A stretch of DNA of 64,000 bases from Chiloscyllium plagiosum. Lineage: Eukaryota. Both the position numbers and the translations under genes were made by a program. This document shows, piece after piece, positions 13,571 through 45,122 of the stretch. Location of the stretch: contig NC_057713.1 of NCBI RefSeq assembly GCF_004010195.1, positions 81,073,164-81,137,163 on the forward strand. Reading direction: 5' to 3'. A model generated the notes under the pieces. It was not told the origin of the DNA, ran no database searches, and saw only the letters and a program-made list of their open reading frames with translations. Positions within the stretch are counted from its first letter, which is position 1, and every line of letters starts with the position of its first letter.

Positions 13571-13740
13571 GGAGGAGAAAGTGAGGTCTGCAGATGCTGG
13601 CGATCAGAGTTGAGAGTATGTTGCTGGAAATGCACAGCAGGTCAGGCAGCATCTGAGGAGCAGGCTCCAGCCAGAAATGTCGATTCTCCTGCTCCTGGGA
13701 TGCTGCCTGGCCTGCTGTGCTTTTCCAGCAACACACTCTC
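13571..13740 (-). mobile_element. Fold-back mini-PLE (family A), 14-bp TSD
   Basis: Inverted pLTR arms. TSD agttttggttatca at 13557-13570 and 13741-13754. Confidence 0.9.
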
Positions 13741-13754
13741 AGTTTTGGTTATCA

Positions 13755-13860
13755 ACCTATTCAGAAGTAATGACATGTTGTGAGATAGAACAGGTGGGAC
13801 TTGAATGCAGGCCTCCTGGCCCAGAGATGGGGACATTAGCAGTGCAACATAAGAGCCTGC
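13755..13860 (-). mobile_element. Short tRNA-derived SINE
   Basis: Minus strand ggctcttatgttgcactgctaatgtccc...ggcctgcattcaagtcccacctg. Similar copies at ~13945-14040(+), 27225-27318(-), 57400-57485(+) and 57590-57700(+). Confidence 0.6.
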
Positions 13861-14580
13861 TACTGAATGGAGATTTGAGAATGCATGAATAATGTATATT
13901 TAATTAGCTTTGTAACAGTGAGTATCTATTCAAATCCTTGGGGATCTCATGGCACGGTGATAGTATTTCTACTTTTGGTGTAGAAGGCCTGGGATCAGGT
14001 TCCACCTGTTCCACAATTTTCTTATATCACATGTAACAGAGTTTCTTTTAATACTTTTCATTGATACTTCACTAGCTTAAAGATGCACCCAAACAGTTTG
14101 CTGGGCTGAGCGACTATTTCTCATTCTCATTCCTTGCTTTTTCTGTGCTGAGTCAACAATTAAAACATGTGGAGAGGATCTATCATGGAACTCTATAAGG
14201 AAACAAATTCCTGACTAGTCAAAAGCTCATTCATTAGGTACCCCTAGCCAAACTGTTGCAGTACAGTTACAACACTGGTTGAAACTCTTTGCAACCATGT
14301 GAAAAACTACAGCTACATCACATATACAAAAGTAGGACGTACCCAACCCTGCTAATTTGCTGCCCAACTAATCTACCCTCAATAATCAGCAAAGTGATTG
14401 AAGATGTCATGGACAGTTCCATCAAGAGGCACGTACTCAGGAGTAACTAGCCAATTGATAGTCTGTATTCTGCTAGGACTTCTTACCTCCTAAACTCTTT
14501 CCAGACTTGATGCAATCATGGACAAAGAGCAAAATTCAAAGTGGAGATGAGAGAGACTGCCCTTGATGCTGAGGCAGCAT

Positions 14581-14654
14581 TTGACTGAGTGTGGCATCAA
14601 GTGGCCCGAACAAAACTTTGACTGAGTGTGGCATCAAGTGGCCCGAACAAAACT
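14581..14654. repeat. Perfect 37-bp tandem duplication
   Basis: ttgactgagtgtggcatcaagtggcccgaacaaaact x2. Confidence 0.95.
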
Positions 14655-15171
14655 TATCAATGATAATTAGGGAGCAGCCTCTCCACTGACTGGAGTCAAG
14701 CTATTACACAGGGCAACGGCTGTGGTTGGAGGTCGATCTTCTCAGTCCTATGACTTCTCTGCAGAACGTCCTCAAGGTAGAGTCTGTGGCCCAACCATCT
14801 TCAGCCACTTCATCAATGACATCTCCTCTTTATGATCCCCTCCCTCATAACGTCAGAAGTGGGGATGTTTGCTGATTATTGCAAAACATTAAGCACCATT
14901 CATGACTTCTCAGATACTGAGGTAGTCCCTGTTCATATGCAACAGGATCTGGACATTATCTAGGTTGGATGAAAAGTGCAAGTAACATCTATGCTGCACA
15001 AGTGCCAGTCAATGACTCCAGCAAAAGAGAATCTAACCATTTCTCCTTGATGTTCATTGTCATTATTATCAATGAATCTCCTACCGTGAAGATCTTGAAG
15101 TTTACCGTTGACCAGAAACTAATCTTTATTAACTGTATAAATATCGTGGCTATGATAGCAGGTCAACAGAT

Positions 15172-15260
15172 GTGTCAAGTAATGCGGTGTCAAGTAACAC
15201 GGTGTCAAGTAACACGGTGTCAAGTAACACGGTGTCAAGTAACACGGTGTCAAGTAACAC
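15172..15260. repeat. 15-bp minisatellite, ~6 copies
   Basis: (gtgtcaagtaacacg)n; gives the CQVTR repeats in the ORF track. Confidence 0.95.
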
Positions 15261-15689
15261 ATCAACATATTCCCCAATGCCCATTCACAATCTACAGGTC
15301 ACAAGTTAGAAGTGTGATGGAATACTCCCCATTCACAGATAAGTACAGCTTCATCTACAATCAAGAAGCTCAACACCACTGAGAAGAAAGCAGCCCACTT
15401 GACTGGCACTCCATCCATCACTTTCAGCAATCACTGTCTACAACAATAATACATAGTAGCTGCAATGTGTATAATCTACAAGATGCATAACAGCAATTCA
15501 CGAAAACATCTTTGATTACACATTCCAAATATTTACTATTTAGAAGGACAATGGCAGCAGATGAATGGGAACACTTCAAAGTCACACACCATCCTGACAA
15601 ATCACTGGTCCTTCGCTGTCGCTTAGTCAAAATCCTGAAATTCCTTTTCTAATTGTTTTGTAGGTGTATCTACATCAGAAGGACTGGCT

Positions 15690-16262
15690 GTGTCAGCATT
15701 TAGTGCCCATCCCAAATTACCCTGGAGAAAGTGGTGGTGAGCTGCTTTCTTGAAGCATAGCAGTCTTTGGATTGTGTTGTCTGAAGCAGTGTTTATAAAA
15801 AGTACAATTCCATGAGTATGATCTTATCAGGCTGTTCCTTGACTAGACAGTGAGACAGCTGTCCCGTTTCGGCCAGTACCCAAGAGGTTTTCAAAGGTCA
15901 ATGGGATTGGAATTGTCATGTAATTTCTGGTGCACAAGTCACTGCAGAATGGTCCATCCAGTTTCAGTTATCCATTAGTTTCCATTTCAGAGGGAAATTA
16001 AAAATCAATCACAATGCTGTGTGTCTGGAGTCACATATAGGCCAGACCCAGTCCAGGTGGAGGATGACAGATATTCTTCCCTAGAGGGAACCAGATGGGT
16101 TCTTATGACAATGACAGTAGTTGAATGGTTACCATGTGATCAGAATTTAATTCCAAATTTTAATCAAAGTCAAATTTGACCATCTGCAATAGTGAAATTT
16201 GAATATTAGGCTAGGGCTCTGATGGCTAGTCCAGTGACATTACCACTGCACCATCACCAGCC
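15690..16262 (-). mobile_element. tRNA-derived SINE sharing its 3' end with the second LINE family
   Basis: Minus-strand head ggtgatggtgcagtggtaatgtcactggactag and tail gggatgggcactaaatgctg. A related plus-strand copy lies at ~57960-58230. Confidence 0.6.
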
Positions 16263-16490
16263 CCTTCACACATCATTCAGAATGCGAATATAACAACATA
16301 CCTTCTCCCTCAAAGACACAGAGACAAGCAGATATATTTTCGAGATGACGTTTGTTAGTTTATTAATGGAATGTCAAGAAAATGTATTGGTTTTAAATTA
16401 TTCCTCTTAGAAGGACTGATGACAAACCCGACTGAGTTCTCTTTTAGGGTTTTTTAGAAGATGAATGGAGATGAGGAGTCTGGGTTTTCA

Positions 16491-16644
16491 TGAACTAGGC
16501 AGAAGTGGGTACTGCAGATGCTGTAGATTAAAGATTAGAGTGGTGCTGGAAAACCACAGCAGGTCAGGCAGCATCCGAGGAGCAGGAAAATCGACGTTTT
16601 GGGCAAAAGCCTGATGAAGGCTTTTCCAGCACTACTCTAATCTT
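16491..16644 (-). mobile_element. Fold-back mini-PLE (family A variant), 15-bp TSD
   Basis: TSD gagtctgggttttca at 16476-16490 and 16645-16659. Turn-around at cctgatgaagg (hammerhead core). Confidence 0.88.
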
Positions 16645-17151
16645 GAGTCTGGGTTTTCAAATGAAGCTACAGTTGCACTTATGTAGACAAAGAGACAAAC
16701 TTTTGTTGTAGTTGGGAATAAAGTAGTCCCTCTTTGAATGCTTGGTTGACTGGTTGTTAGGCTGGGATCTGTCTTGTTGGTGGAATGGTTCTTTTGTACT
16801 GACCTCACCTCTGGCTCTAAGTTTTGTTACTTGATGCCAGTTTTGATCATGTGACCACATGACCAGGATTCGATTGTCAACAAAATTATTCCAGGTTAGA
16901 AGTCATGGCTACACAATGTTTGCCTGTTTGCCTGATAACTGTTCACAGCACTAATGATAAACTCTTTTCTCCGCAAGTCTCTTTACTAAGTTTTTTCCTT
17001 GCACATACTGAATCTGGAAGGGAAATCTTTCAATTTAGGTTTTGGTAAACATCAAACCAATGGGAGCTGTAAATTCAGAAATAGATTCTTATTCAATTTA
17101 CCTGTCCAAGGTAGTGTACAACAGATCTTTACATGTTACTGACCTCCCAGA

Positions 17152-17900
17152 AGCATAGAGTCATAAGGTCATACAGCACAGAAACAGGCCCTTTGCTCCA
17201 ACCAGTTTATGCCGAACGTAATGCCAACTTAAACTAATCCCACCTGCCTGTTCCTGGCCTGCATTCCTCCAAGGAGAAAGTGAGGTCTGCAGATGCTGGA
17301 GATCAGAGCTGAAAATGTGTTGCTGGAAAAGCGCAGCAGGTCAGGCAGCAACAAAGGAGCAGGAGAATCGACGTTTCGGGCATAAGCCCTTCTTCAAGAT
17401 TCTCCTGTTCCCTGGATGCTGCCTGACCTGCTGCGCTTTTCCAGCAACACATTTTCACCACATTCCTCCAAACCTTTCCTATTCATGTATCTATCTAAAT
17501 GTCTTTCAAATGTACCCACATCCATCACTTTCTCAGGAAGTTCATTCCACCTGCAAACCACCCTCTGTGTAAAACATTTTGTCATTTTTAAAATCTCTCT
17601 CCTCACACCTTAAAAATGTGCCGACTAGTCTTTAAATCTCCTATCCTAGGGAAAAGACAACTACCATTAACTTTATCTATATCTCTCATTATTTTATGAA
17701 TGTCCATCAGATCACCTCTCAATCTCCCACACTCTAGTGAGAAAGGTCCCAGCATATCTAGCTATTCTTTAAAACTTAAACCTTCCATACATGGCAACAT
17801 CCTGGAAAATTCCTTCCGAACCCTCTCCAGTTTGATAATATCCTTCCTGTAACTGGGTAACCAGAACTGGACACAGTATTCCTGAAGTGGTCACCCCAAC
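17152..17900 (-). mobile_element. CR1 LINE 3' end, interrupted by a mini-PLE
   Basis: ORF 17394-17606 (FTQRVVCRWNELPEKVMDVGTFERHLDRYMNRKGLE) is the CR1 ORF2 C-terminus. Confidence 0.85.
17273..17457 (-). mobile_element. Fold-back mini-PLE (family A) with chimeric arms, 11-bp TSD
   Basis: TSD cattcctccaa at 17262-17272 and 17461-17471. Inverted arms meet at ~17397/17398. Confidence 0.9.
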
Positions 17901-18039
17901 CTTCGGCAGCCATCTCTCTTGCCACATTTTATTTATGTTTTTTTAAAGGCACAATTTAATCTCAAAGAATCCACTTGAATAAAGTCCAAATCTTAAAAAG
18001 TAGAAATAGTATATTTTACTGAGCTTGAAACTATCTCTA

Positions 18040-18253
18040 AAGAACTGCAGGTGCTGGAGATCTGAACAAAAACAGAAACTGCTGGCGAAACTCAGCAGGT
18101 CTGGCAGCAACTGTAGGAATAAAGCAGAGTTAACGTTTTGAGTCTGGTAACTGTTCAGAACTGACATCAAGTCACCAGATTTGAAAAATTAATTCTGCTT
18201 TCTTCTCACAGATGCTGTTAGACCTGCTGAGTTTCACTAGGGATTTTTGTTTG
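18040..18253 (-). mobile_element. Fold-back mini-PLE (family D), older, 14-bp degenerate TSD
   Basis: Inverted arms (aaactcagcaggtctggcagc / gatgctgttagacctgctgagttt). TSD tgaaacta(t/c)ct(c/t)ta at 18026-18039 and 18254-18267. Confidence 0.8.
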
Positions 18254-18381
18254 TGAAACTACCTTTAGTTAACAGCAATGAAATGGGAGAATAGTTAAAA
18301 TGAAGTGGTGTAATTTTCCATCATATTCCTGCTGCTCTGTTAGGATGTCGATTTTGCAAGATTAGTAGAAAAGGGGAGAAA

Positions 18382-18620
18382 GACTAGCGTTTATATTGTA
18401 CTTTTTATGACCACTGGACGCTATAAACCACTTTACAGCCAATGAATTTTTTTTGTACTTTAGCCGCTGGAAGGTGGGAAATGCAACAACCATTTGGTAC
18501 GGCAAACAATGAAACATTTTTAACAGTCAATTTTTGTGATGTCGATTGAGGATATATTTTGGCCAATGCACTTTGGGTAGCTGCTGTTCTGTAAATGGCA
18601 TGCCCATGATACTCTGGTTT
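18382..18620 (-). mobile_element. DeuSINE (SacSINE1/AmnSINE1-like) fragment
   Basis: aagactagcgtttatattg...cactttacagccaatgaa...gggaaatgcaacaaccatttg...gatgtcgattgaggatatattttggcc resembles the Deu-domain SINE 3' half (from recall). Confidence 0.55.
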
Positions 18621-20072
18621 AAATTAAACCTGCTCTTGAGCAGGGTGCCCAGCACAGCAAGCTTTGACAGTTGAACCTATTTGAAAGTCAGTGAGGCTTG
18701 TTATGGGAAGTTTTTTTATTTAAAAAGCTTTTCTTATTGGAGTTCAGAGCTGGAGTACCTACTGCTGCACCCTTTCCCCTTCCAGGCCTCAAGTGGCTTG
18801 CTCCAGACCTTTCCCACCATTACACTTCTGCAAGCTGCAAACATTGCTCAAGACTGAGATGCCTGATATGCTGCCAGCCTCCTGCTAAAATCTGACATTT
18901 ATAATGATCTACATTATGATAATTGCAGAAATGGCGCTGTATAAAGACCTATTAATGGGTGGGTTTCCAGATTCACTTGGCCAGTTACATCTGGAAACCT
19001 ATTTACATCACTCTGTAAAGAGAGTGTTATTATTTGTGCCCTTGGATAGCGAGAAACTATAGAACATTGATTTTCACAAACTCTGGAATTTCTTGTTATC
19101 TGAACCCTTAAAGATGCTCAGCAACTTTCCTTACTGGTTACAAACAAATTAAATGTCCTTTCCAGAACTGTAGCTTTTTATAATATTAGAGGGTACATTT
19201 TGAGTAAACATTGGTTTAAAATTCTTTTAAAATCAAAGTATAAAATTTTACATGGATGCCTTTTATTTTCACATAGCCTTGATATTTTCTTCCAAACGCT
19301 TGACATCTTTGAAGAACCCACACTGAGACAGTAATAAAATGTAGTTTGGAACAAAAGTAAATCATGCTGGTTTGTGTTGCCACAGGCTCATGGCTCTGGT
19401 TCCATCCTGCACATTGGAGAAGTGGTTCTCTTTATCTTTGTTGCTAGCATGTGGCCAGTAATAGTTTCCCTGACGCAGAGTGACTTCTGTCTGACTTTGG
19501 TAAGATTATTTTCCTTACACCATTGTACACATTATAGTTCACTGTCACTGATACAGACGATTCCTTCATTCTTCACAGTTTGTGCACATGACTGTACAAT
19601 GTACATTGATCATTGTACATCAATGTTACGCACAGTCATCTCATTATCAGAATATTGTCATTGCACTACACAGTTTAGATACATAAATTCACAAGAAATT
19701 TTGATTACTGGCATTATGTTTTAAAGACAGTGAGGGGTCTTTCTAGCTTTTAGTTGAAAGTTGGGGATAAATTTAACTTTCAGTATTGGATGGAAAAGGA
19801 AATCTTAGATCAGTCTCACTGGATCAGCTTTTCCTTCCCATTTACATTTGTAGTGTATTAACATAGTAACTTCTGAGCCTGAGACTGTATGTGTCTCATT
19901 GATTTGGAAGTTAGTTGAATGGTCTGAGGCTGCATAATGCAAGATAAAGCAATGGTGAAGAATATTAATAAAGAGGGGTTTTATGTATGCTGTAAGAGTT
20001 AGATAATTGCAGAGTAATGAGGCATCAACAAGATATATAATAATGATGTGTGTGATGTCACATAATTATGCA

Positions 20073-20856
20073 CTTCTTCAGGAATGAGGAGGGTGTGCCA
20101 AGCAGGCTAAGATAAAAGATAGGGAGGAGGGACTTGGGGGAGGGGCATTGGGAATGCGATAGGTGGAAGGAGGTTAAGGTGAGGGTGATAGGCCAGAGAG
20201 GGGTTGGGGACGGAGAGGTCAGAAAGAAGATTGCAGGTCAAGAAGGCTGTGCTGAGTCCGAGGGTTGGGACTGAGAAAAGGTGGGGGTAGGGGAAATGAG
20301 GAAGGTGAAGAAATCTGCATTCATCCCTTGTGGTTGGGGGGTTCCTAAGCGGAAGATGAGGCGCTCTTCCTCTCGGCGTCGTGTTGCCATGGTCTGGCAA
20401 TGGAGGAGGCCAAGGACCTGCATGTCCTTGGCGGAGTGGGAGGGGGAGTTAAAGTGTTCAGCCATGGGGCGGTTGGGTTGGTTGGTGCGGGTGTCCCAGA
20501 GGTGTTCTCTGAAACCCCTTGTGGTTGGAGGGTTCCTAGGCGGAAGATGAGGCGCTCTTCCTGCAGGCATCGTGTTGCCATGGTCTGGCGACGGAGGAGG
20601 TCAAGGATCTGCATGTCCTTGGTGGAGTGGGAGGGGGAGTTAAAGTGTTCAGCCACGGAGCGGTTGGGTTGGTTGGGACGTTTCAGAGAACACCTCTGGG
20701 ACACCCGCATCTGACCTCTCCCTCCTCATTCCTGAAGAAGGGCTTATGCCCGAAACGTTGATTCTCCTGCTCCTTTGATGCTGCCTGACCTGTTGCACTT
20801 TTCCAGCAACACATTTTTCAGCTCTGATCTCCGGCATCTGCAGTCCTCACTTTCTC
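20073..20856. mobile_element. Rearranged Penelope-like insertion (family A): inverted and duplicated GIY-YIG C-terminus plus sense pLTR and tail; 14-bp TSD
   Basis: ORFs with FREHLWDTRTNQPNRP.AEHFNSPSH...EEERLIFRLGT.QPQG. TSD cacataattatgca at 20059-20072 and 20857-20870. Confidence 0.92.
20728..20763 (+). ncRNA. Minimal hammerhead ribozyme motif (PLE family A)
   Basis: CUGAAGA (20732-38), A, stem II GGGC-UUAU-GCCC, GAAACGUU (palindromic ACGU stem III, GUU triplet). Confidence 0.8.
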
Positions 20857-21029
20857 CACATAATTATGCAGAGTGATTTGGAAGAAGACAGAAACTCTAC
20901 CAGTCTGTGAGAATGTGTTTATGTACTCTGCTGTAAAGAAAGAGTTTTGAGGAAAGTACCTTGAACCCATGAGCAGTACCTGGAAGACCAAAGCTGCTTA
21001 GACCCCATACACATGACAAACTAGGAATA

Positions 21030-21280: not shown

Positions 21281-21329
21281 AGATCACTAGGATTGCTGAG
21301 CAACTAGTTAATTCCTCAATTCGTTGCTG

Positions 21330-22180: not shown

Positions 22181-22534
22181 CATTTGCAAATTTGGATTTT
22201 AAACTAGAGGTAAATAGATTAATGGCTTCAGTTCTGTGAGGATAACTGTTTGTTATTTTAAGAGGTCATAAAGTCATTTGAAATGATGAACTAAATATAT
22301 CATTTTCAAGAAGCCATGTCACCTAACTCCACATAAGATACCTGTGGAGTTAATGATAATGTGTTTATGATGCTGAGTCTTGTAACACACAACGCAAAAT
22401 GGGCAAGAATCACTTGTAGTTTGAGTTCAGTTCAGAAGGTTCAGGTTTCAATTCAGAGAAATAATTTCATAGCAACACAAGGGCAGTTTGCTGGTTGCAG
22501 AATCCAGGTCAAGATAGTTTGTAGACTTTTCCAC

Positions 22535-23116
22535 CCACTGGGAGTAATGACAGCCATGCTCAGACAACAACTCACCAGGACTAAAGACCCTCTACCCATC
22601 ATGTGTAAGTCAAATGTAATTTACAAGATTCTACGCAAAGCCTGCATGAGGCTAATATAGGGCAAACAGGCAGACAACTGGTAATCCGCATCTACAAACA
22701 CCAACTAGCCACTAAACACCACGACCAGCTGTCCTAGTAGCCACACACACAGATGTCAAGGACCACAAATTTGACTGGGACAACACAATGATCATAGGAC
22801 AAGCCAAACTGAGGACAGTCAGAGAATTTCTAGAAGCGTGGCATACAGCCACGGACTCCAACAACAAACATACTGATCTAGGCCCAGTATACCAACCACT
22901 ACAATGAACAACCAGAACTGGCAACCAGAAGCAGCAGGAACGGAACCAAATAAATTCCAGAAGACACAGTACCATAGCGCTTCACAGGAGGCTTCAAAGC
23001 ATGGAAGATGTCACCTAGACAGGGAATGAAACATCTGCAAATCAACTTCCCAGCTCAGCGACCATACCTCCAACTATGACAACCGGTACCCGAGCTACAA
23101 ATTTTTATGCAAACCA
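22535..23116 (+). mobile_element. Penelope-like element (family C) 3' portion with pLTR and tail
   Basis: LRQQLTRTKDPLP..KSNVIYKI...HQLATK...FDWDNT.IIGQAK...REFLEAWH. Degenerate hammerhead at ~22998-23038. Confidence 0.88.
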
Positions 23117-23119
23117 TGA

Positions 23120-24357: not shown

Positions 24358-24582
24358 ATGAAGGTGCTGGGGTTGGTCTGGGGTAGACAAAGCTAAAAAT
24401 TACACAACACCAGGAAGTAGCCCATCACGTTTATTTGGAAGCCCTAGCTTTCGGAGCATTGCTCCTTCATCAGGTAGCTGTGAAACAGGATCATAGGACA
24501 TTGTAATTCTGTGTCTCCAAAAGATAGTACTTCCAAATAAACCTATTGAATTGTAACCTGGTGTTGTATGATTTTCAACTTT
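24358..24582 (-). mobile_element. Fold-back mini-PLE (family B)
   Basis: Minus-strand pLTR with tail, short filler, then an inverted arm ending at gattttcaacttt. Confidence 0.8.
24442..24476 (-). ncRNA. Minimal hammerhead ribozyme motif (PLE family B)
   Basis: Minus strand CUGAUGA-A-GGAGC-AAU-GCUCC-GAAAGCUA (palindromic AGCU, CUA triplet). Confidence 0.8.
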
Positions 24583-29439: not shown

Positions 29440-29900
29440 AAAGGAATATGTCAGGAGTGTGATGGAACTACACCCAAGAAGCTTAACACCATCTATGGAG
29501 AAAGGACACAGCAGCCCACTTGATTGGCACCACATCCATCACCTCCCTCACGTGCTCAGTAGCAGCAGTGTGGACCATCTATAAGATGCAATGTAGAGGT
29601 TCACCAAGGCACCTTCGACAGCATCTTTCAAATTCATGACCATTTCCATCTAGAAGGACAAGAACAGCAGACACACAGGAATACCATCAACTGCAAGTTC
29701 TCAACCAAGCTAATCACTATGCTGACTTGGAAATACATCGCCGTTCTCTCATTGTCACTGATTCAAATTCTGCATTGCGTACTTGCACAAAATGGACTAT
29801 AGTGTTTCAAGATGGCAACACAATGCCACCTTCTCAAGGGAGAGTTGGGATGGGCGATAAATGCTGGTCCAGCAGCATAGTGCACATCTTGTGATTATAT
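29440..29900 (+). mobile_element. Second-family CR1/L2 LINE 3' fragment
   Basis: gtcaggagtgtgatggaa...cagcccacttgattggcacc...gggatgggcgataaatgctgg. Similar fragments at ~30370-30930(-), 34985-35560(-), 36985-37400(+) and 46600-46715(+). Confidence 0.7.
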
Positions 29901-31509
29901 TTTATTGAAAGGTAAGTGCAGCAGAATCCGTGGATGAAGAATAATGTATGCAGGCTTCATCATAAAATAATCTAACAACAGTTGATCAGTTAATTCCTAA
30001 ACTGCTATTTAGCCCTAGAGGGATCAATTGTTGTTTTGACTCTGAGCTTACCATCAAGAGGATAGAAATAAGAGGTATCAAAGTGTCAAATCCATTTCAC
30101 TGTCTTCAGAGCAACAAGGTTGCACTCCAATATTTTGGTGTTCCATTTTCTACCATGCAAGTCATGGATGTTTTTCCTAAAGTCCAAATGACCCTGGATT
30201 CAGGGCAGGGTCCTGTTTGAGTCAAAGAAGTGACATTCTAAAAGCTCTCCTGCTGTAGTGATACATCAGTGTGTTCAGAATTCCTATTGTGCCAGACCTG
30301 ACTTGACAGGACATCTGTTCAGTTTTTCATTCGGCACTTTTTTTTATTAATTCACAAGATGAATCACCTCCTGGTACTCTAACCTTTCCTAGGATGTGGG
30401 TATGTCTGGCTGGACTAGCATTTATTACCCACCTCTGGAGAAGGCAGGTGGTCAGAGCCAGCTTATTGAACCACTGTAAACCTTGCGGTGTAGGAACACC
30501 CAGTGTGCAGTTTAAATGGGAGTTCCAGGATTTTAACCCAGTGACAGGGAAGGTACAGCAATATAGTTCCAAGTCAGGATGGTGTATGACTTGGAAGGAA
30601 ACTTGCAGGTGGTCGTGATCCTATGTGTCTGGTGCTCTTGTCTTTTGAGATCATATCGGTCGTGTTTGGAAAGTCCCATCAGAGGAACCTTGGCAAGTTA
30701 CTGTCGTGCATTTTGTAGATGGTACACATTGTTGTCACTGTGTGAAGGTGGAGGATGAGGTGCCAATCAAATAGGCTCTTTTGTCTTTGATGGTGTCAAG
30801 CTTCAGAGTGCTATTGGAGCTGTACTCATCCAGACAAGTGCATTCCATCACACTCCTAACTTGTATATTGTAGATGGTGGCCAGGCTTTAGAGAGACAGG
30901 AAGTGAGCTACTCACTGCAGAACTTCTAGCTCTTACATGATCCATTTCACAGTTTGGTGTGCATTTACAGAATGGGACCTGAGTAAGGGATATCTTTGGG
31001 TGCGAAGTGGAAGAAATTCCTGATCATGTGAATGAAAGAAACGTGGAGTCTCTATCAGTGCAGTCCGTAGTTCCAAATGCAACATGCAGGTAAAAACATT
31101 GTTGCCACAGTAATTCTGAATTGTCACAACATTACCACCACCCGATTAAAAACCTTTGTTCTTTGTTCACTTTTTAAATTAAAATTCATAAATACGTTGC
31201 TTTTCAATAAGATGAATCAGATCATCATTAAACATGGAGGAATATTTCATTAGTATTTTGTTGTCAAATTCTGTCACTTTTCAGAAACGCTAATTTCTAC
31301 ATTATATTTATTCCCGTGAAGGAATTTTATCAGCACATTATCTGAAGGATTAGGGAGCAGCTCATTTCATTTACAATCTTCAGCTTCCATGGATAGTGGG
31401 GTTATAGTTGTTTATTGCCAACAACAAGGTGGCCCAGCATCAGAAATAATCCACTTTCTTTTAGATAATCTCGAGTTAGAGATTCCCGGACAGATGCCTT
31501 CTCGTACAA

Positions 31510-31658
31510 GTCAAGAGTGTAGTGCTGAAAAAGCACAGCAGGTCAGGCAAAGTCCGAGGAGCAGGAGAATCGACGTTTCGGGCATAAGCCCTTCATTGTG
31601 CTTTTCCAGCACTACCCTCTCGACTCTGAGCTCCAGCATCTGCAGTCCTCACTTTCCC
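31510..31658 (+). mobile_element. Fold-back mini-PLE (family A)
   Basis: Inverted arm running to the hammerhead core (gacgtttcgggcataagcccttca), then a sense arm with tail (...cagtcctcactttcc). No clean TSD seen. Confidence 0.82.
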
Positions 31659-32226: not shown

Positions 32227-32322
32227 GATTAGAGTGGTGCTGGAAAAGCACAGCAGGTCAGGCAGCATCTGAGGATCTAATCTTGATTCTAAACTCCAGC
32301 ATCTGCAGTCCTCACTTTCGCC
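32227..32322 (+). mobile_element. Very short fold-back mini-PLE (family A variant), 15-bp TSD
   Basis: TSD taac(c/t)attaagttta at 32212-32226 and 32323-32337. Confidence 0.85.
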
Positions 32323-32492: not shown

Positions 32493-32666
32493 CTGAAAAT
32501 GTGTTGCTGGAAAAGCGCAGCAGGTCAGGCAGCATCCAAGGAGCAGGAGACTCGACATTTCAGGCATGAGCCCTTCAGGAATCCTTGGATGCTGCCTGAC
32601 CTGCTGCGCTTTTCCAGCAACATATTTTCAGCTCTGATCTCCAGCATCTGCAGTCCTCATTTTCTC
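32493..32666 (+). mobile_element. Fold-back mini-PLE (family A), 16-bp TSD
   Basis: TSD cctgatgtatctctgg at 32477-32492 and 32667-32682; inverted arms. Confidence 0.92.
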
Positions 32667-35286: not shown

Positions 35287-35470
35287 TTAGTCCAGCAGGT
35301 TTATTTGGTAGCACTAGCTTTCGGAGCACTGCTCCCTCATCAAGTCCTCCTGATGAAGGAGCAGCGCTCTGAAATTTAGTGCTTCCAAATAAACTTGTTG
35401 AACTATAACCTGGTGTTGTGTGATTTTTAACTTTGTACACCCCAGTCCAACGCCAGCATCTCCAAACCAA
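35287..35470 (+). mobile_element. Fold-back mini-PLE (family B) with two divergent hammerhead copies
   Basis: tagctttcggagcactgctccctcatcaag / cctgatgaaggagcagcgctctgaaatttagtg, followed by the tail. Confidence 0.82.
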
Positions 35471-35620
35471 AATTAGTGAATTTCTCAGTTCCTCCAATAG
35501 ATAATACACACTGCCACTGAATTTCGGTAGAGGGAGTGCATGATTGTAAATGTGTGGCCTTGTGATGTATTTAAGGAAGTAGAGGTACTGTGAAAAGAAA
35601 CTCAGAACTTAGTTGACTAA

Positions 35621-35746
35621 ACCATCTGATGAAGGAGCAGCGCTCCGAAAGCTAGTGCTTCCAATTAAGCCTGTTGGACTATAACCTCGTGTTGTGTGAT
35701 TTTTAACTTTGTACACCCCAGTCCAACACCGGCATCTCCAACTCAG
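35621..35746 (+). mobile_element. Solo pLTR plus tail (family B), 10-bp TSD
   Basis: TSD agttg(a/g)ctaa at 35611-35620 and 35747-35756. Confidence 0.85.
35623..35657 (+). ncRNA. Minimal hammerhead ribozyme motif (PLE family B), intact
   Basis: CAU-CUGAUGA (35626-32)-A-GGAGC-AGC-GCUCC-GAAAGCUA-GUG; stem I CAU/GUG. Confidence 0.85.
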
Positions 35747-36985: not shown

Positions 36986-38254
36986 GAAGTCTGGTACCAT
37001 CCAGGACAAAGCAGCCCATTTGATTGGTACCATGGTGACAAATATCCACTCCTTTCAGCACCAACACTCAGTCATAGCGGTGTGTACTATCTACAAGCTG
37101 TGCTTCAGAAGTTCACTAAACCTACTTAGACAATAATTTCTCATGACCATTACCAACTCAAAGGATAAGGGCAGCAAATACTTACAACTTCCTCTCCAAG
37201 CCACTCAACTGATTTGACCCAAGGACACTGTCATTCAGTGTCCTTGGGTCAAAATCCTATAATTCCCTCTCTAACAACATTGTGGGTCTACATACAGCAC
37301 ATGGACTGCAGAGATTCAAGAAGCCAGCTCACCAACACCTTTCTAAGGGTGACTGCGGTTGGGCAATAAGTCCCAGCCCAGTCAGTGATGTAGTCCTATA
37401 AATGAATTTTTTAAAAACTTACTCAAATATTCAAGGTTGCTGACAATGGTGAAGTCATACTCTGTACTGGAGTTCCCATATGTAACTGCATGCAGAGCAA
37501 AAGCCTCAAGCTCTATAATGTGTGAAACTAGAACCACACCCACAGGAAGAGAATTCTTACCTGTGAGGTAGTAGGGAAATCATCATTTCTTTTGTCATCA
37601 AAATTGTCTTCATTTTATGTTCAATAGCCCAATTCTTTATCAGATGAGATGTTGAATACTCCTTTTGGCATCACACCAGTTGCAGATGATACAGCTGTGA
37701 AATTTTTCATGAGAATTTAAATTGCTTCATTTTTTCCAACTGAAATTTAATCTTTCCCCAGAGACAGAGAAGGAGGAAAAAGATGAGAAATAGAATTTCA
37801 GTTCATTGTCTTCCTCGTGCTTTTTGATGGTGCTCCTGAAGATTATCTGTTGAACAATCTTTTGATCAGCCTTCACTGAGTTTAATTTCAAGAATTGTCA
37901 GTATCACAGCCCAGGTACCAGCTATTGTAAGAAGCAGGCAATCTATTTGTTTCCTGTGGAGAAAATAATGGTCTTTACATGTCCCTCACATCCTCAAAAC
38001 GAGTCAAGAACATCGTGGAGATCCAGTCTATTTGTTGAAAGAGACAACGTGGAGTTTTGGGAAAGGGGGAGTGGGATGAAAATGTACATCGTTAAGGGGT
38101 ACAATGAAAGGTTTGGGAAGAGGTGTCGTATGAGAAATTAATTGCTGCTATGTAAATAGCTACTGTGTATTATCAATGAAATTTGATCACATGAAAGCCT
38201 GGGGGAAGAAGGATCTAATGGAGTCCTGCTGAACCATATCTCTGTAACTAATGT

Positions 38255-38448
38255 TAAAAATCTCAAAACAGCAGGTTACAGTCCAATAGGTTTATTTGAA
38301 ACACTAGTTTTCGGAGTACCGTTCCTTTATGAGGTGGTCAGAGCGGCCCTCTGAAAGCTAGTGCTTCCAAATACACCTGTTGGCTGTAACCTGGTGTTGT
38401 GTGATTTTTAACTGTCCACCAGAGTCCAACACTGGCACCTCCAAATCA
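38255..38448 (+). mobile_element. Fold-back mini-PLE (family B), older, 11-bp TSD
   Basis: TSD gtaa(c/a)taatgt at 38244-38254 and 38449-38459; inverted arms. Confidence 0.8.
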
Positions 38449-41400
38449 GTAAATAATGTAAGTAGTGGATAAGCACTAGTATGGTTTCCAGTCCTCACAA
38501 ATGATGAGGGCTTAACAGATAAGTATGGCGATAATCATACTAAGTGGGGGACGCTGTTATAATCTACATTTAGACTGGAATAAACAGATCAACAAAGATG
38601 GTGGAGATGAAGGCTTATTAGAGGAAGTTTCTTAGAACATCATAGTCTGAAACCAACTGGAGTGCAGGCTATACTAGACATTGTATTGTGCATAGGATTA
38701 ATTAATCATCTCATGGAGAACAATGGGTCATAGACTAGTATTTTAAAGTTAAATAAGAATAAATACATTCCAAAGAAAAAGAAAAATTCCAGTGGAGAAT
38801 CCACCATCCGTAGTTCACTAAAAATGGTTCAGACAATTTCAAACTTAAAGTAAATGGGCAAATGGGATAGATGGATGACACGTCAAATATTGGACAGAAG
38901 ATAAATTATAGCAGAGAATGGCTAAAATATTAATAAGGAGAGAAAGTTAAAGTAAAACAGAAAACAAGCTGCAAATAAAAAAGACAGATAGTAACAGTTC
39001 CCTTAGATATTCAAAACGGAAAAGTTAACAAGGTGAGGATATTTCCTGTAGAAAATGAGCCTGAGGAAAACAAGGAAATGGCAGATAAATCAAGTAGATA
39101 ACTTGAAGCAGTCCTCATGATAGAGGTATCCAGAATTAGCTATAAATCTGAAAATGGAAAAGAGAGGAGAATTCGGGAAAATGATAATCATTCGGGAAGT
39201 GGTACTGAGCTGAAGGCTGGCAATGCCTGGGTCCTGGTGATCTTCATCCAAGGGTCTTAAATGAAGTGGCTACTGAGATAGTTGTCACTTTGGTTTTAAT
39301 ATTCTGAAATTCCCTAGTTTTGGAGAAGATTCTATTAGATTGGAAAATAGCAAATGTGAAAAAAAAGAGGGAAATAGAAGGCAGAATAATACAGGCCAGT
39401 TAGCTTAACATGTCTTATAGGGAAAATGTTAGAAACCATTATTAGAAATGAAATAGCAGAGAACTTAGAAAATTTCAAGGTAATCAGGCAGAGTCAACAT
39501 AATTTTGTAAAAAGGAAATGATAATTAACCAATTGGGCATTTCCAGATTTTCAGAGGTATTTGATAAGGTTACACTTCAAAGGCTACCACGAAAAATATA
39601 AGTTCATGTAATGTGGCAACATAGTGGCAAGGATAAAGATTGGCGAGATAGCAGGAAACAGAGAGTGGGCATAAGTGGATCTTTTTCAGGTTGCAGGAAG
39701 CAATAAGCGCAGCATTGCAGGATTCAATGGTGGACCTCAAATTTGTACAATTTATGTGAATTAACTGGATGAAAGAACAGACAATAAGGTTTCACAGCTC
39801 AGGTACCGGCTATTGTAAGAAGCTGGCAATCTATTTGTTTCCAATGGAGAAAATAATGGTCTTCACATGTCTCTCACTTCCTCAAAATTTGCAGGTGATG
39901 CAAAGGTAGCTAGCATGTAGTGTACTGACATAAATAGAGAACTGGTTGGCAGATGGGAAACAAAGAGTAGAAATAAATGGATGGTTCTGAGTGGCAGCCA
40001 TGACGAGAGCTTGGACGTCAGCTATTTACACTTTATAAAGATGATTTAGATAAAGAAACTAAATGTAATATCTCTGATTTTGCAGATGACAAAGTGGGAG
40101 GGTGAGTTATGAGAAGGACGCAGAGATGTTTTAGTATGATTTGGACAAGTGGACAGGATTTGAGTGATAGGACAGCTACATAGCAGATGAAGTGTCATGT
40201 GGAAAAATGTGAGGTTAGCCACTTTGGTAGCAAAAAAGGTCAGGCAGATTATTATCTGAATGAAAGTAATTAGAAAAGGGGGAGGTGAAATCCTTTTATG
40301 CCAATCACGGAAAGTAAGCATGCAGATGCAGCCGGCGGTGAAGAAAGCAAATGTTATATTAGACTTCCATAGTGAGATGATTTGAGGACAGGAGCAAGGA
40401 TGTTTTACTGCAGTTGTAGGGCTTTAGTGAGACCACACCTGGAGTTTTGCATGCTGAGGATGAAGGAAGGTTTGCAAAGGTTTACCAGACAGATTCCTGG
40501 GATGGCAAGAGTTACTTATGAAGAGAGACTGGATTGATTAGGACTGTACTCACTGCTGTTTAGAAGGACAAAATCTATAAAATTCTAACAGGACTAAAAA
40601 GTGTATGTTCAGGAAAGATATTCCCAATGACCGGGGAGTCCAGAACTAGGCATCACAGTCTAAGGATACAGGGTATTCCATTTAGGACTGAGATGAGGAG
40701 ACATTTCTTCACCCAGGGCTTGGTGACCCTGTGGTATTGTCTCACAGAATTAGCTGATGCTAAAATATTGAGTATTTCCAGAAAAGAGTTTGATATGATT
40801 CTTAGAGCCAAATGGATCCAAAATGTATACAAAGAAAACAGGACAGTGTACTGAGTTAAATGATTAACCATATCGAATGATGGAGCAGGCTTGAAGGGCT
40901 GAATGGCCTACGTCTGCTCCAATTTTCTATTAAACAAAATTGTAGCGAAGATATAAAGAGGCTACAAGAGGAAATAGATAAACTGAGTGGGGCATAGATC
41001 TGGCAAAAGGACTACAATGTGGAAAAATATATAATTGCCCAGTCTGATGGGAAGAATAAAGTGAAGCATATTGTCTACATGTTGAGAGATTAGAGCTCAG
41101 ATATCAAGGGAACTGGGTGTCCCAGCACATGCGTCATAAATGCTTAGTATGCAGATACAGCAAGCATTCAGGAAAACTATTAGAATGTTATATTTTACAG
41201 TAAGGGGAATTGGATACAAAAATACATTTGTGAGACCACATCTGGAACACTGTGCTTGCTGTTTTGGTCTTCTATTTAAGAAGGATGTAACTGTGGTGAT
41301 TCAAAAAAGGTCTACTTAACTAATACCAGGAATGGATAGGTTGTCTTATGAGGGAATGGTTGTACAGGCTATGCTCATATACCCTGGAGTTTAGAAAAGT

Positions 41401-41621
41401 GAGAGGTAACTTGCTGAGGGGTCTGGTGGAAAAGATGGTTCCTTTCATGAGAGAAACTAAAACTAGTAGCCACTGTTTAAAAGTCAGGGTGACCAATTAA
41501 TATAAGAGATAAGACTTTTTTTCCACCTCAGATGGTAATGAATCTTTGGATCTCTTATTCAAATGATGGTGGAAGCAGAGTCCTTGAATATTTTTAATGC
41601 AGGGATAGATACTTGATAAGC

Positions 41622-41828
41622 GCTGGAAATGTGTTGCTGGAAAAGCGCAGCAGGTCAGGCAGCATCCAGGGAACAGGAGAATCGACGTTTCGGGCATAAG
41701 CCCTTCTTCAGGCTTATGCCCGAAACGTCGATTCTCCTGTTCCCTGGATGCTGCCTGACCTGCTGCGCTTTTCCAGCAACACATTTCCAGCTCTGATCTC
41801 CAGCATCTGCAGACCTCACTTTCTCCTC
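41622..41828 (+). mobile_element. Young fold-back mini-PLE (family A): 81-bp perfect inverted arms plus 37-nt tail, 17-bp TSD
   Basis: Arms 41622-41702 and 41711-41791 are exact reverse complements (loop cttcttca). TSD atagatacttgataagc at 41605-41621 and 41829-41845. Confidence 0.95.
41680..41712 (-). ncRNA. Minimal hammerhead core (family A), intact
   Basis: Minus strand CUGAAGA-A-GGGC-UUAU-GCCC-GAAACGUC-GAUU. Confidence 0.8.
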
Positions 41829-42874
41829 ATAGATACTTGATAAGCAAGGGATGAATGGTAGGCAGGAATGTGGAGAAATTGGATCAGCCATGAACTTATA
41901 GAATAACAGAACAGACTCATGGAGCAAAGTAGCCTACTGCTACTCGTAACTCCTATCATCTAATGTCAATCTGTCAAAAGCACCCAGAATGCAGTCTTCA
42001 TATTTGTACATATAGTTCCAATGAATTGCACATGATATGAGCCACAGTTAAATCTTTTCTTCACCATTTACAAAGAGCTTACTGACACAGTACAATACAA
42101 CATATGGTTTGCAGCGTACAAAATAACTTTGGCAAACTTTTGTATTTTCTGAGAAGGTCATATTTGCAACCAAACAAAAGTTAAAGCTTACAAGTTATTT
42201 GTCTTAAGCTACATATCTGTGCTTTTAAATTTCCGCTGTACTTTCAAAATATTTTCTTTGTCTTGTTTCAACAATACACATCTATCTAAGTAATTGCTAA
42301 AAAGAACATTTGGAACAGGAAAGGATCTTTTACCCTGTGGAGGAAACAAGGTTGATGAGCCATTAGATTCTTCTCTCTGTTATAGACTCCTCCCTACACT
42401 CAATATCCCTCGAGAGAGAGAAAAAAATAACCTTACAAAATTAAAGATGCATGAAATTTCTCTGACTCCCACAGGCAATAGAGTGATACTCCAGAATCGT
42501 ACAGATCACTCAATTCTAATCAATTGCATTCACAGATGATTGATCAACTGCTGCAGTAACTGCATGAGTTAGTGTTCCATGGAAAAATGAATTATCTGTG
42601 TCTATTCTTATAATTTTTAATCCTATTAGTAAACGTAGGCTTTCTCTGACAGTCTAATTTTGCATATGCTATAATCCAATGGTCAGAAAAAAACAGCTTG
42701 ACGTTATACCTCTGATCTTCAAAACACTATAAACATGACTTTTGGCACAAGGTTTTTTTGACTGCTGTCCTGACCTACACATATGATGAACAGCTGCATT
42801 AATTATATCGATGTTGAAACAATAAAGCTATAAAGAAAAATAATTGAATAATAAGAAACCTCATAAGAAGACTT

Positions 42875-43839
42875 CATAATGTGTATTGAAGATTCATAAA
42901 ATGTTATTGTTTGAGAGCTTCGGCTTTAAGTTGAAAGAACAGTATGTAGCTTTCAGTTTGTATATTAAGAAGGGAAAGACATGCTTTTTAATTTCAGCTT
43001 CCATTTGTTTTAAGTGTGGTGTCCGTTTGTCTGGATGTTTTTTTTTTAAAACAGGCATGAAATAAGGGCTTTCAATCCTTGAGTGAATAGTTCAACTAAA
43101 TAGTTCAAGAACAAACTGAACAGACAAGATAGTAAATGTTGCCTGGCAACAGAAGTCCTATAACACAGAAAGCCAGAAGACATCAGGTAGTATTATTCAG
43201 AGAGAAGAGGTCCCTAACAGTATAGGTGCTGTTATTAAGTCTCCAAACAGTCTGAACTGAAAAGAAGTCCAGAGTGTCAGAGGATTAAGAGAAAAGCTCT
43301 AAAACAGACTATTGAGGTATCAGAGATTAAAACATCCTACAAGACTGTTGACAAAATGAGTTTGGGAACACATTAAGTAAAAACGGAGTTGTTTTCAACT
43401 ATTTACATGTCTCATGGAGAGATACTAACTAAAGAAAATAGTATCAAGCGAATGCACAAAACTTGTTGAGAAAGAAAACTAAATACAGCCATGCTAGCTG
43501 GATAACAGCTATAGCATGGTGACAGGGATGTTCCTTCACTAAGGTTTGAGTATGTAAGGTTGTGTGGGGGGGAGAGGGGGAAGGGGTGAATCTTTCTGTC
43601 TGATGTTTGTTATAAGAATCTTCCAAATAGTTCTTGGGGCATAATATGGTTCTTACTTATTATTTTGCATGTAATATGCTTTTACAGTCTTTTGACAAAA
43701 GAACATTGGCAGACTCTTCTGAATATGTTCAGTGACTGATCACTGCATTTCTCAAAAATAAATACAAAACTTATGATCAATCCTTCCAGGTTTCACTCTG
43801 GGATCAGGCTTGTCCAATATTACCATCAGCTGGATAACA
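42875..43839 (+). mobile_element. Probable solo LTR
   Basis: Ends in ...ctctgggatcaggcttgtccaatattaccatcagctggataaca (ACA terminus of Gypsy-type LTRs). The 5' boundary is uncertain. Confidence 0.4.
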
Positions 43840-44263
43840 ATTACTTCAAGAGATTTTTTTTCATTTATCTCACTAATTTGACTGTGTTTTTAAGAAGAGT
43901 TCATCTAAATGCACCTTGGAATCCAAATTCAGCCCCTACCCATTAGAGAAAGTATATCAGATTCCTGTGGTAAAAAAGTAGCATCTTATTCTTTTCTGCC
44001 TCGAAGAAATAAAATTTAAACAAATATAGATTGCTTGGGACCTTTTATTTTTAGTTTTCCAAACTGATCTTGCATCAAATTGCCTTCTACCTTATTCTGG
44101 CAGTACCATGTTGTTAAGTACAGTTCAAAGTTGAACCAAAGGCTGCAGTACTGTCAGCAGAAAAGGACATTTAAAAATAAAAATGAAGAAGCAGTCCTAG
44201 GCCAAAACCCAAAGAGGACGAACAAGAGGAAACTTTCAACTGTTGGCCATTACTTGTTCATCT

Positions 44264-45122
44264 GAGCGTGTTTGGAGAAGATTTGTAGCTCAGGTTGAGG
44301 TTCTGGATGTAGGTTTGCTGGCTGAGCTGGAAGTTTAATTTTCAGACGTTTTATCACCATACTAGGTAATGTCATTAGTGAGCCTCCAGATGAAGCACTG
44401 GTGGAATGGCCCACTTTCTATTTATGTGTTTAGATTTCTTTGGGTTGGTGATGTCATTTCCTGTGGTGACATCATTTCCTGTTCTTTTTCTGAGGGGGTA
44501 GTAAATGGGATCCAAGTCAATGTGTTTGTTGATAGAGTTCCGGTTGGAATGCCATGCTTCTAGGAATTCTCGTATATGTCTCTGTTTGGTTTGTTCTAGG
44601 ATGGATGTGTTGTCCCAGTCGAAGTGGTGTCCTTCCTCATCTGTTTGTAAGCATACCAGTGATAGTGAGTCATGTCTTTTTGTGACTAGTTGATGTTCAT
44701 GTGTCCTGGTGACTAGCTTTTTGCCTATTTGTCCAATGTGTTGTTTGTTACAGTTCTTGCAAGGTATTTTGTAAATGACATTAGTTTTGCTTATTGTCTG
44801 TATAGGGTCTTTCAAGTTCAGTAGCTGCTGTTTTAGTGTGTTGGTGGGTTTGTGGGATGCCAAGAGGTTAGCCACAAACCCACCAACACACTAAAACAGC
44901 AGCTAATGAACTTGAAAAAGAACCGGAAATGACATCACCACAGGAAATTATGTCACCACAGGAAATGACATCTCCAACCCAAGGAAACCTAAACATATAA
45001 ATAGAAACTGGGTCATGCCACCAGTACTTCATCTGGAGGCTCACTGATGATGTTACCTAGTATGGTGATGAAACGTCTGAAAATGAACCTTCCATCTTAG
45101 CAAGCAAACCTACATCCAGAAC
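44264..45122. mobile_element. Penelope-like element (family C): minus-strand GIY-YIG, pLTR and tail, joined to an inverted plus-strand pLTR
   Basis: ORF 44375-44875 (KTNVIYKIPCKNCNKQHIGQ...FDWDNTSILEQ...REFLEAWHS). Inversion at ~44870. Possible TSD ctt(g)ttcatct. Confidence 0.92.
45041..45080 (+). ncRNA. Minimal hammerhead ribozyme motif (PLE family C), intact
   Basis: UCA-CUGAUGA (45044-50)-U-GUUACC-UAGUAU-GGUGAU-GAAACGUC-UGA: stem I UCA/UGA, 6-bp stem II, GUC triplet. An inverted degenerate copy lies at ~44342-44381. Confidence 0.88.

Follow-up and report, generated by a model that had tools for sequence, protein, structure and literature searches.

Single-tailed head-to-head PLE inserts in carpet-shark DNA and their possible origin by twin priming

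How does a genome come to hold short insertions made of two copies of one PLE pLTR, set head to head between target-site duplications (TSDs)? The question is raised by a 64,000-nt stretch of Chiloscyllium plagiosum DNA (NC_057713.1, 81,073,164-81,137,163; hereafter the window), from which all counts given here derive. An earlier note had described about ten inverted two-pLTR insertions together with a longer one at 44264, and our analysis bears this out: all 12 listed loci consist of two opposed copies of one family's pLTR, with their 3' ends outward. An additional inverted insert was found at 20073-20856. The window is crowded with PLE fragments: we found 19 inserts, 13 inverted and 6 single-arm. 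We propose that the inverted inserts are probably dead-on-arrival, heavily 5'-truncated inverted EN+ PLE insertions that were made separately, likely by twin priming.

Tails, outer ends and target sites

All 13 inverted inserts, whose ends and arm ends we assigned by hand, are head-to-head pairs of 5'-truncated PLE 3' ends, with arm-to-arm divergence ranging from 0 to ~27%. Eleven have been cut down to 96-224 bp and contain no ORF; the insert at 44264 is ~860 bp long. The proposed density of one insertion per ~5 kb stands as a window average but not as an even spacing, since all 13 are confined to 13.6-45.1 kb of the window (range probability 0.0015).

The tail is present on exactly one arm in 13/13 inverted inserts, an outcome with a probability of at most 0.5^13 = 1e-4 if the two arms chose their start sites independently. 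No two-tailed or tail-less inverted pair was found among the local inverted hits in the window. The tail measures ~35 nt in families A, B and C and ~25 nt in family D (18040). Counting arm positions from the C of the hammerhead CUGA box, the tail-less arms have their outer ends at +85 to +91 (A), +79/+83 (B) and +79 (C), placing 10 A/B/C inserts within +79 to +91; the family D short side ends immediately before the tail. The fixed point at which the short arm had been said to stop is therefore better described as an end cluster ~7 nt wide, with two exceptions: 35287 stops at +55, and the tail-less arm of 20073 terminates within the hammerhead, at +8. A tail-less single-arm family A insert (2686-2780, +), which runs from -5 and has an 8/9 short duplication overlapping the element start, terminates at the same short site (+90), indicating that this site works without a partner arm.

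We scored TSDs as length minus three times the number of mismatches and compared them with 300 random intervals, whose maximum was 8. Seven of the 12 listed inserts exceed this maximum (13571, 16491, 17273, 24358, 32227, 32493 and 41622), and the well-supported duplications are mostly 14-17 bp long. Three others, 18040 (12/14), 38255 (12/14) and 35287 (10/11), fall in the top 2% of the null, 44264 lies at ~6%, and no credible TSD emerged for 31510 from the same flank scoring. Of the duplications previously ascribed to most insertions, these seven stand above the null, four more are weak and one is lacking. Nine TSDs are 65% AT, versus 59% for the window, and no target-site motif is obvious by eye.

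The family A insert at 13571-13740 illustrates the arrangement: a tailed arm (13571-13664, -) and a tail-less arm (13663-13740, +) meet at a 2-nt microhomology, are non-nested, and lie within a 14/14 TSD (13557-13570 / 13741-13754). At 16491-16644 (family A, second subfamily; TSD 15/15), a tailed arm (16491-16611, -) joins a tail-less arm (16610-16644, +) that begins at the CUGA box and, in our interpretive reading, makes an internal jump of ~60 nt at a 6-nt microhomology. In the family A insert at 17273-17457 (TSD 11/11, or 14 with CpG decay), the tailed arm spans 17273-17399 (-) and the tail-less arm 17398-17457 (+). The family D insert at 18040-18253 and the family B insert at 24358-24581 likewise have tailed (-) and tail-less (+) arms, the latter insert with its tail-less arm at 24515-24581 and a 9/9 TSD lying 5 nt off the left end. 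The opposite order, a tail-less (-) followed by a tailed (+) arm, is seen at 31509-31658 (locus 31510; family A, non-nested), 32493-32666 (family A; arms to -4 and from +39; TSD 16/16, or 14-16 given ambiguity), 35288-35473 (locus 35287; family B, the inner ends of both arms at the CUGA box, the tail-less arm stopping ~25 nt before the usual outer end) and 38255-38445 (family B; arms to about -4 and from +9).

Families and hammerheads

The inserts belong to four families, A-D, from two PLE clades, and associated endonuclease (EN) sequence ties family A to Neptune-type and family C to Poseidon-type elements. In these two families only, the pLTR is contiguous with a GIY-YIG EN of the EN+ PLE type, which is C-terminal, has two cysteines inside its core and lies downstream of a PLE RT. 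Part of a single-arm tailed Neptune-type fragment (4014-5200, -, right limit approximate) with a 3' UTR and a family-A-like pLTR, the A-linked EN at 4420-5058 contains a CX2-5CxxC linker that is absent in family C and its homologues. This linker is described as present in Neptune and Nematis and absent in Poseidon (PMC8557442); the label Neptune-type is drawn from it, and Nematis would also be compatible. The A-linked EN is 46% identical to P0012, which has an RVT_1 domain and a sub-cutoff GIY-YIG match, and the EN of 44264 is 60-82% identical to shark proteins, several of which have RT or PF26215 domains. Pfam matched none of the four EN fragments in the window. Two family-C-related single-arm Poseidon-type fragments, both tailed and with approximate limits, lie at 10524-11271 (-) and 22511-23110 (+).

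By tblastn, no EN or RT sequence adjoins family B or D in the window. We assigned B through its hammerhead core and D through ~73-77% similarity to the A pLTR, and both also through tail architecture; each is further represented by a tailed single-arm insert, B at 35621-35746 (+; from -5, with a matching hammerhead core and a 9/10 TSD) and D at 13258-13343 (+). A tail, 5' truncation, an inverted copy and a TSD, all features of EN+ PLEs, are all present. DNA motif and protein-pattern scans of a bacterial and archaeal genome collection found no copies.

Hammerhead cores were sought with the pattern CUGAnGA..GAAA..UH, allowing an unpaired base before stem II. The core and a family-specific stem II occur in the A, B and C pLTRs (minimal type I), and the only D copy spanning the region is degraded. 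The description of the inserts as hammerhead-bearing holds for 4/12 listed loci, in which one arm matches the core (41622, 24358, in its tailed arm, 44264 and 35287, the last with a mutated 3' part); most cores are truncated or mutated, and 13571, 31510 and 32227 lack the CUGA box. The pattern scan found no insert with a matching core in both arms. Rfam at E<=5 returned 14 matches in all, none to a hammerhead and all below gathering score; these sub-threshold matches include miRNA families. Isolated hammerhead regions fold no better than shuffles (z 1.1 to -1.5). As to self-cleaving activity, most cores are broken and would be buried in a hairpin stem. We rejected hammerhead cleavage as the main source of 5' ends: only the short arm of 17273 begins at the predicted cut (+28), and 16/22 short-insert arms reach 5' of it.

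Inner junctions and the origin of the two arms

Neither arm contains the other in 7/13 inserts, where the tail-less arm extends further 5' and only the other arm carries the tail; neither arm thus looks like a copy of its partner, a pattern that favors priming from both nicks over simple fold-back. These seven match what twin priming should leave, namely two outer ends that each represent an RT start next to a single TSD and arms that are not mutual copies, with a later deletion possible; the other six do not discriminate. The non-nested set includes the least diverged insert, 41622-41828 (family A; TSD 17/17), whose tail-less arm (41622-41712, -), with an intact minimal hammerhead, and tailed arm (41711-41828, +) are identical over 81/81 shared columns. 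It also includes 32227-32322 (family A; TSD 14/15), whose tail-less (32227-32275, -) and tailed (32276-32322, +) arms share only 4 aligned columns, so that the fold-back shape claimed for these insertions fails here (MFE z = -0.2).

The inner ends pile up at the hammerhead 5' edge, with 13/22 short-insert ends at -5..+10 (scan p = 2e-5). The junction was said to differ in every copy, and so it does at the level of letters; in homologous coordinates, however, 16491 and 41622 share one junction, -1/+9, and 38255 and 18040 lie near it. In both long inserts, the inner ends of the two arms fall at nearly one base. These patterns do not support the idea that cDNAs were joined wherever they stalled, and run-off with 2-nt microhomology fits the joining better than random stalling. 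Microhomology of at least 2 nt is found at 4/7 family A junctions (p = 0.014, hand-assigned), and three arms have internal deletions or jumps.

In the long family A insert at 20073-20856 (TSD 20059-20072 / 20857-20870, 14/14), the tail-less arm (-) continues into Neptune-type EN coding sequence, the tailed arm (20680-20856, +) has internal jumps, the interior includes a 161-bp partial EN duplication, and the inner ends of both arms fall at one base, 434 nt upstream of CUGA. The family C insert at 44264-45122 (TSD 7/7 or 10/12, weak) has a tailed arm (-) of ~600 nt with GIY-YIG-type EN coding sequence (44375-44890), a central palindrome (44810-44917), and a tail-less arm (+) that skips ~320 nt internally and has a matching core at 45044. 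The coupling of inner ends over all 13 inserts (permutation p = 0.004) rests on these two; the 11 short inserts show no inner-end correlation (rho = -0.05; permutation p = 0.53).

In the route we favor, the PLE protein would nick both target strands ~14-17 bp apart, and both 3'-OH ends would then be used, in coordination, to reverse-transcribe sense PLE RNA, one starting from the end of the tail and the other from the pLTR end, which lies ~35 nt upstream. The cDNAs would extend toward the RNA 5' side and usually halt at the hammerhead 5' edge, where the RNA may end or the RT may be blocked. The 3' end of one cDNA would next anneal, over 0-3 nt of microhomology, to its own sequence or to that of its sister, and fill-in would yield the head-to-head insert between TSDs. 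The geometry, the one-tail rule, the end clusters, the TSDs, the non-nested arms and the stop hotspot are observed here. What we infer is that extension of both nicked strands and the use of two RT start sites, each seen in vitro for an anole Poseidon element (PMC11167929), belong to a single event and are coordinated, along with why cDNA synthesis stops and how the ends are joined. The earlier proposal of priming at two defined RNA positions agrees with the single tail in 13/13, the non-nested arms in 7/13 and the tail-less 2686 insert ending at the short site.

An unlikely alternative is single priming at the tail end, after which the cDNA snaps back, serves as its own template as far as roughly the pLTR end, and joins the second nick, with deletion of the palindrome centre generating non-nested arms. 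It predicts that each insert has a single tail and that its inner ends are coupled, and it suits the 4/13 nested inserts (17273, 18040, 24358 and 44264), which fit simple snap-back, as well as the central palindromes of 44264 and 20073, the identical arms of 41622, and junction microhomologies that coincide with the natural micro-hairpin surrounding the CUGA box. A palindrome-centre deletion could indeed turn nested arms non-nested later. However, the tail-less arm reaches furthest 5' in 3/4 junctions of the -1/+9 type (16491, 41622 and 38255), opposite to its prediction, the arms of 32227 scarcely overlap, and the fixed short end and the tail-less 2686 insert are left unexplained. The arms of 17273 also differ at 4/60 columns, 3 of the 4 matching other copies, as if from different haplotypes, a weak signal (p = 0.045, one of 10 elements tested) that fails multiple-test correction; we discarded similar signals in 13571 (0.004) and 31510 (0.053), which arose because the alignment to the reference had slipped by one base.

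Self-priming by an antisense transcript, in which the RNA 3' end folds back and the palindrome is then integrated, is the published reading of head-to-head PLE palindromes, proposed for Adineta vaga Penelopes (PMC3846280), and would account for the orientation seen here and for the coupling of inner ends. We regard it as improbable: alone, it does not explain two defined outer ends or the non-overlapping arms of 32227, and nicked DNA primes sense RNA at two tail-bounding sites in vitro (PMC11167929). Amplification of pre-formed hairpin masters, by SINE-like re-retrotransposition or MITE-like DNA transposition, seems a shade less probable again. The single junction geometry of 16491 and 41622 would suit it, and copy structure is known from one window, but these two differ in subfamily in both arms, and no pair among the 13 shares length, junction and subfamily. 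That the inserts are independent events and not one MITE is upheld by their asymmetric ends, one always with the extra tail, variable long TSDs, 13 different lengths and junctions, four families from two clades, and arms of one subfamily within each family A insert. Chance adjacency of two insertions, later inversion or an assembly fold-back artefact is hardly credible even where PLE fragments are this dense, as a single flanking TSD, same-family arms, constant head-to-head orientation and 0 to ~27% divergence exclude it for most inserts.

Relation to known systems

The architecture of inverted pLTRs, one tail and a TSD is already known. A 5'-truncated inverted head-to-head copy occurs in A. 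vaga Pen2a/Pen2/Pen3a (PMC3846280), D. virilis Penelope (PMC2377424) and the general scheme for these elements (PMC8557442), and the published inverted-pLTR EN+ PLEs likewise have a 30-40-nt tail usually at one end only, a TSD around the whole unit and a junction palindrome (PMC3846280, PMC8557442, PMC2377424). The shark inserts differ in that 11/13 are 96-224 bp without an ORF, inverted outnumber single-arm inserts 13:6, the tail is always on one arm, and most TSDs measure 14-17 bp, as against 8-10 bp for examples from A. vaga (PMC3846280). Dual minimal hammerheads on opposite strands, ~100-700 bp apart, were ascribed to truncated PLEs in Schistosoma (Cervera and De la Pena 2014, PMC4209133); they share the minimal core and the unpaired base before stem II, but that report gives no anatomy, TSD or mechanism, and the shark cores are mostly truncated or mutated. 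Non-LTR retrozymes (bioRxiv 10.64898/2026.07.22.740005) are also short, derive from PLE pLTRs, lack coding sequence and contain type I hammerheads, but their units are arrayed in tandem, head to tail, and consecutive units each have a complete hammerhead, whereas the shark inserts are head-to-head with at most one matching core. The literature searched did not contain a strict one-tail rule, the stop hotspot or an explicit PLE twin-priming model.

In L1 twin priming, the two arms derive from separate, non-overlapping stretches of one RNA, and the position of the second priming site varies; the shark arms mostly overlap and both start at defined sites, with only 32227 L1-like. In L1, both sides of the break prime RT, giving an inversion (Ostertag and Kazazian 2001, via PMC2246262). 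The anole Poseidon protein PAc (Frangieh et al. 2024, PMC11167929) resembles the proposed shark route in that it cleaves and extends both strands in vitro, starts RT at two sites bounding the tail, and uses uncleaved RNA; it is predicted to be a dimer. The main text is silent on inverted insertions and strand coordination, and the RT start site did not differ between the top strand and the bottom one, which leaves the coordination that would underlie the one-tail rule putative in biochemical terms. To this picture the shark inserts add the one-tail rule, and they extend the pattern to Neptune-type elements.

The origin of PLE tandem and inverted structures has been called an open problem (PMC8557442). 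We tentatively suggest, with less than even confidence, that the head-to-head insert might be the primary PLE transposition product: a dimer would prime the two nicks obligatorily asymmetrically, probably on one RNA, the hammerhead region would serve as RNA 5' end or RT stop and not as a cleavage site, twin priming would complete the second strand, and Neptune- and Poseidon-type clades alike would obey the rule.

Carpet-shark DNA seems rich in tiny complete insertion records, with outer ends, TSD and junction readable in ~200 bp. In annotation, such inserts would be miscalled as MITEs or miRNA precursors, and a role as a source of dsRNA is possible. These records allow a count-based test of twin priming against cDNA snap-back and antisense self-priming, and yield precise predictions for the in-vitro PAc system.

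Inverted PLE insertions and their outer ends

Family copies were mapped with copies from the window as references, inverted repeats were listed, and arms were aligned at 12 loci. All 12 insertions listed in the earlier note (13571, 16491, 17273, 18040, 24358, 31510, 32227, 32493, 35287, 38255, 41622, and 44264, named by start coordinate) consist of two Penelope-like element (PLE) terminal repeats (pLTRs) of one family, placed head-to-head with their 3′ ends outward. We found a 13th inverted PLE insertion, absent from that list, at 20073-20856; it also contains a 161-bp partial tandem of endonuclease (EN) sequence and two internal jumps. Single-armed insertions number six in the window (2686, 4014, 10524, 13258, 22511, and 35621), five tailed and one tail-less.

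Target-site duplications (TSDs) were scored against 300 random intervals, whose top null score was 8. By this scoring, TSDs exceed the null maximum in seven of the 12 listed insertions and in 20073, are borderline in three and weak in 44264, and 31510 has none. The nine TSDs readable to the element end, a set leaving out 24358, 35287, 44264, and 31510, measure 14, 15, 14, 14, 14, 15, 16, 14, and 17 bp, some with a 1-2 nt boundary ambiguity.

In all 13 inverted insertions one arm is tailed and the other tail-less, a pattern with a probability of at most 1e-4 if the arms chose independently. Relative to the C of the CUGA hammerhead box, the tails finish at roughly +114 to +126 and the short arms at +79 to +91. 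Each site is a cluster of several bases rather than a single base; for family A the reference sets an upper limit on the tail-end values, and the alignment shows a few bases more spread. The tail of family D is only ~25 nt. The fixed stop previously proposed for the short arm thus survives as a grouping of ends that is several bases wide and has exceptions in 35287 (+55) and 20073 (+8). The tail-less single-arm insertion 2686-2780 ends at +90; therefore, the short site can be used without a partner arm. This arm and the tailed family-A arm 4014-4123 lie tail-to-tail, 1.2 kb apart, and are probably independent.

The 13 insertions make up 5.6% of the window (3,596 bp). Compared with shuffled sequences (30 per insertion, six for each of the two long ones), 12 of the 13 fold better (z ≤ −3.5). 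Eight contain a helix that runs for 22 or more pairs without interruption. Because all 13 cluster within 13.6-45.1 kb (p = 0.0015 under uniform placement), their density is not to be extrapolated.

Family identity and neighboring sequence

The EN fragment of 44264 is 60-82% identical to proteins attributed to Stegostoma, Chiloscyllium, and Hemiscyllium, which marks the window as carpet-shark-like. Family C EN lacks the CX2-5CxxC linker, and the family is classed by sequence as Poseidon-type. The linker is present in the family-A-linked EN (4420-5058, also inside 20073), which matches P0012, an 897-aa protein with reverse transcriptase (RT) and GIY-YIG domains; given both features, this EN is Neptune-type by the criterion in excerpts of PMC8557442. 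The window contains no coding sequence linked to family B or D. Family-C EN sequence also occurs inside predicted Chiloscyllium host-gene isoforms (P0005, P0008, P0009, and P0010; MAP3K7, WBP2-like, NT5DC1, and EYA3-like), which points to exonised PLE fragments or to artefacts of annotation.

The description of these insertions as hammerhead-bearing applies in part. A minimal hammerhead core with a family-specific stem II is found in families A, B, and C, and a matching core is kept in only four of the 12 listed insertions and in both arms of none, which makes the ribozyme largely a relic in these insertions.

Several other features lie in the window. A 124-bp inverted copy (4268-4391) of flanking DNA at 3631-3753, 85% identical, lies within the 3′ UTR of 4014, a Neptune-type fragment, and is bounded by 11-nt near-repeats; it is possibly local DNA captured during insertion. 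A 215-bp AT-rich, near-perfect palindrome (59227-59441; 94.5%) is not PLE-derived and has no second match within the window; its center motif is found again in the right flank, the pattern expected if host DNA had been duplicated in inverted orientation by template switching. Shorter palindromes at 37213-37253 (41 nt) and 8549-8576 (28 nt) matched none of the PLE references. Two copies of a different repeat, diverged (68%) and in inverted orientation, stand ~750 bp apart at 29478-29772 and 30526-30804. Broken Gypsy-like LTR-retrotransposon pol pieces (60894-62694) carry RT, RNase H, integrase C-terminal, and SH3 matches (Pfam), and a LINE-type RT fragment at 48558-49139 (weak RVT_1 match) is presumably CR1-like.

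Inner junctions and the origin of the inversion

The insertions are real and are a minimal form of an already known PLE insertion architecture. Inverted pLTRs that have a TSD and a tail on one side are described in excerpts of PMC3846280 (31-bp tail, 8-10-bp TSDs), PMC8557442, PMC8969392, and PMC2377424, and opposite-strand hammerhead pairs 100-700 bp apart in those of PMC4209133. Very short PLE insertions are normal, since de novo insertions have a median length of 128 bp (excerpts of PMC9977147). For non-LTR retrozymes, the preprint excerpts (bioRxiv 10.64898/2026.07.22.740005) cover tandems, not inversions; those of PMC12910113 add nothing further.

The cDNAs had been proposed to join wherever they stall, but inner ends are not scattered. 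As assigned by hand, they fall at −5 to +10 in 13 of 22 short-insert arms (scan p = 2e-5 versus a uniform spread), five of these at about +9; the value for 24358 assumes that 40 unaligned bases are element, that for 16491 assumes an internal deletion, and that for 18040 is approximate. Two single-arm insertions also start at −5. A −1/+9 junction with a 2-nt overlap is common to 16491 and 41622, from different subfamilies, and the 38255 and 18040 junctions are close to it. Microhomology of at least 2 nt occurs at four of seven family-A junctions (p = 0.014). In the long insertions the inner ends of the two arms coincide or nearly so. They fall on a single base in 20073, which suggests one truncated RNA read twice, and lie ~17 nt apart in 44264, an offset derived from homologous proteins; coupling of inner ends has p = 0.004 with these two and p = 0.53 without them. 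Internal deletions or jumps interrupt arms of three insertions (at 16619, 44914, and 20710); at least two of the three have short microhomologies at these points, and either RT jumping or later palindrome decay would account for them.

The core idea of the earlier note, two nicks priming at two RNA positions, is supported by insert anatomy and by the main text of PMC11167929. There, the anole Poseidon protein, a predicted dimer, nicks and extends both strands; RT begins at two internal sites separated by the tail interval, and hammerhead cleavage is not required. From this text and the shark anatomy (13 insertions, one window), we favor, as a fairly probable route, coordinated priming of two nicks, each at one of the two RT start sites. 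The cDNAs would run off or arrest at the hammerhead 5′ edge and be joined through 0-3 nt microhomology.

Single priming followed by cDNA snap-back seems unlikely. It fits four nested insertions, but at the recurrent junction the arm it predicts is the wrong one in three of four cases. The tail-less arm extends further 5′ in seven of the 13 insertions, the tailed arm in four, and neither in two; in those seven each arm includes sequence that the other lacks, which rules out a pure fold-back copy, barring a later deletion of the center. Among the seven is the best-preserved insertion, 41622, whose arms are identical at 81/81 shared columns; the arms of 32227 have only four columns in common. Antisense self-priming, put forward in excerpts of PMC3846280, is more doubtful still, and amplification of hairpin masters we consider marginally less probable again.

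Twin priming is known from L1, as summarised in excerpts of PMC2246262. In the literature searched, which covered the main text of PMC11167929, we found no statement of such a model for inverted PLEs, and none of a strict one-tail rule or hammerhead-edge stop. The regularities of the shark insertions turn an open mechanistic question into a testable one.
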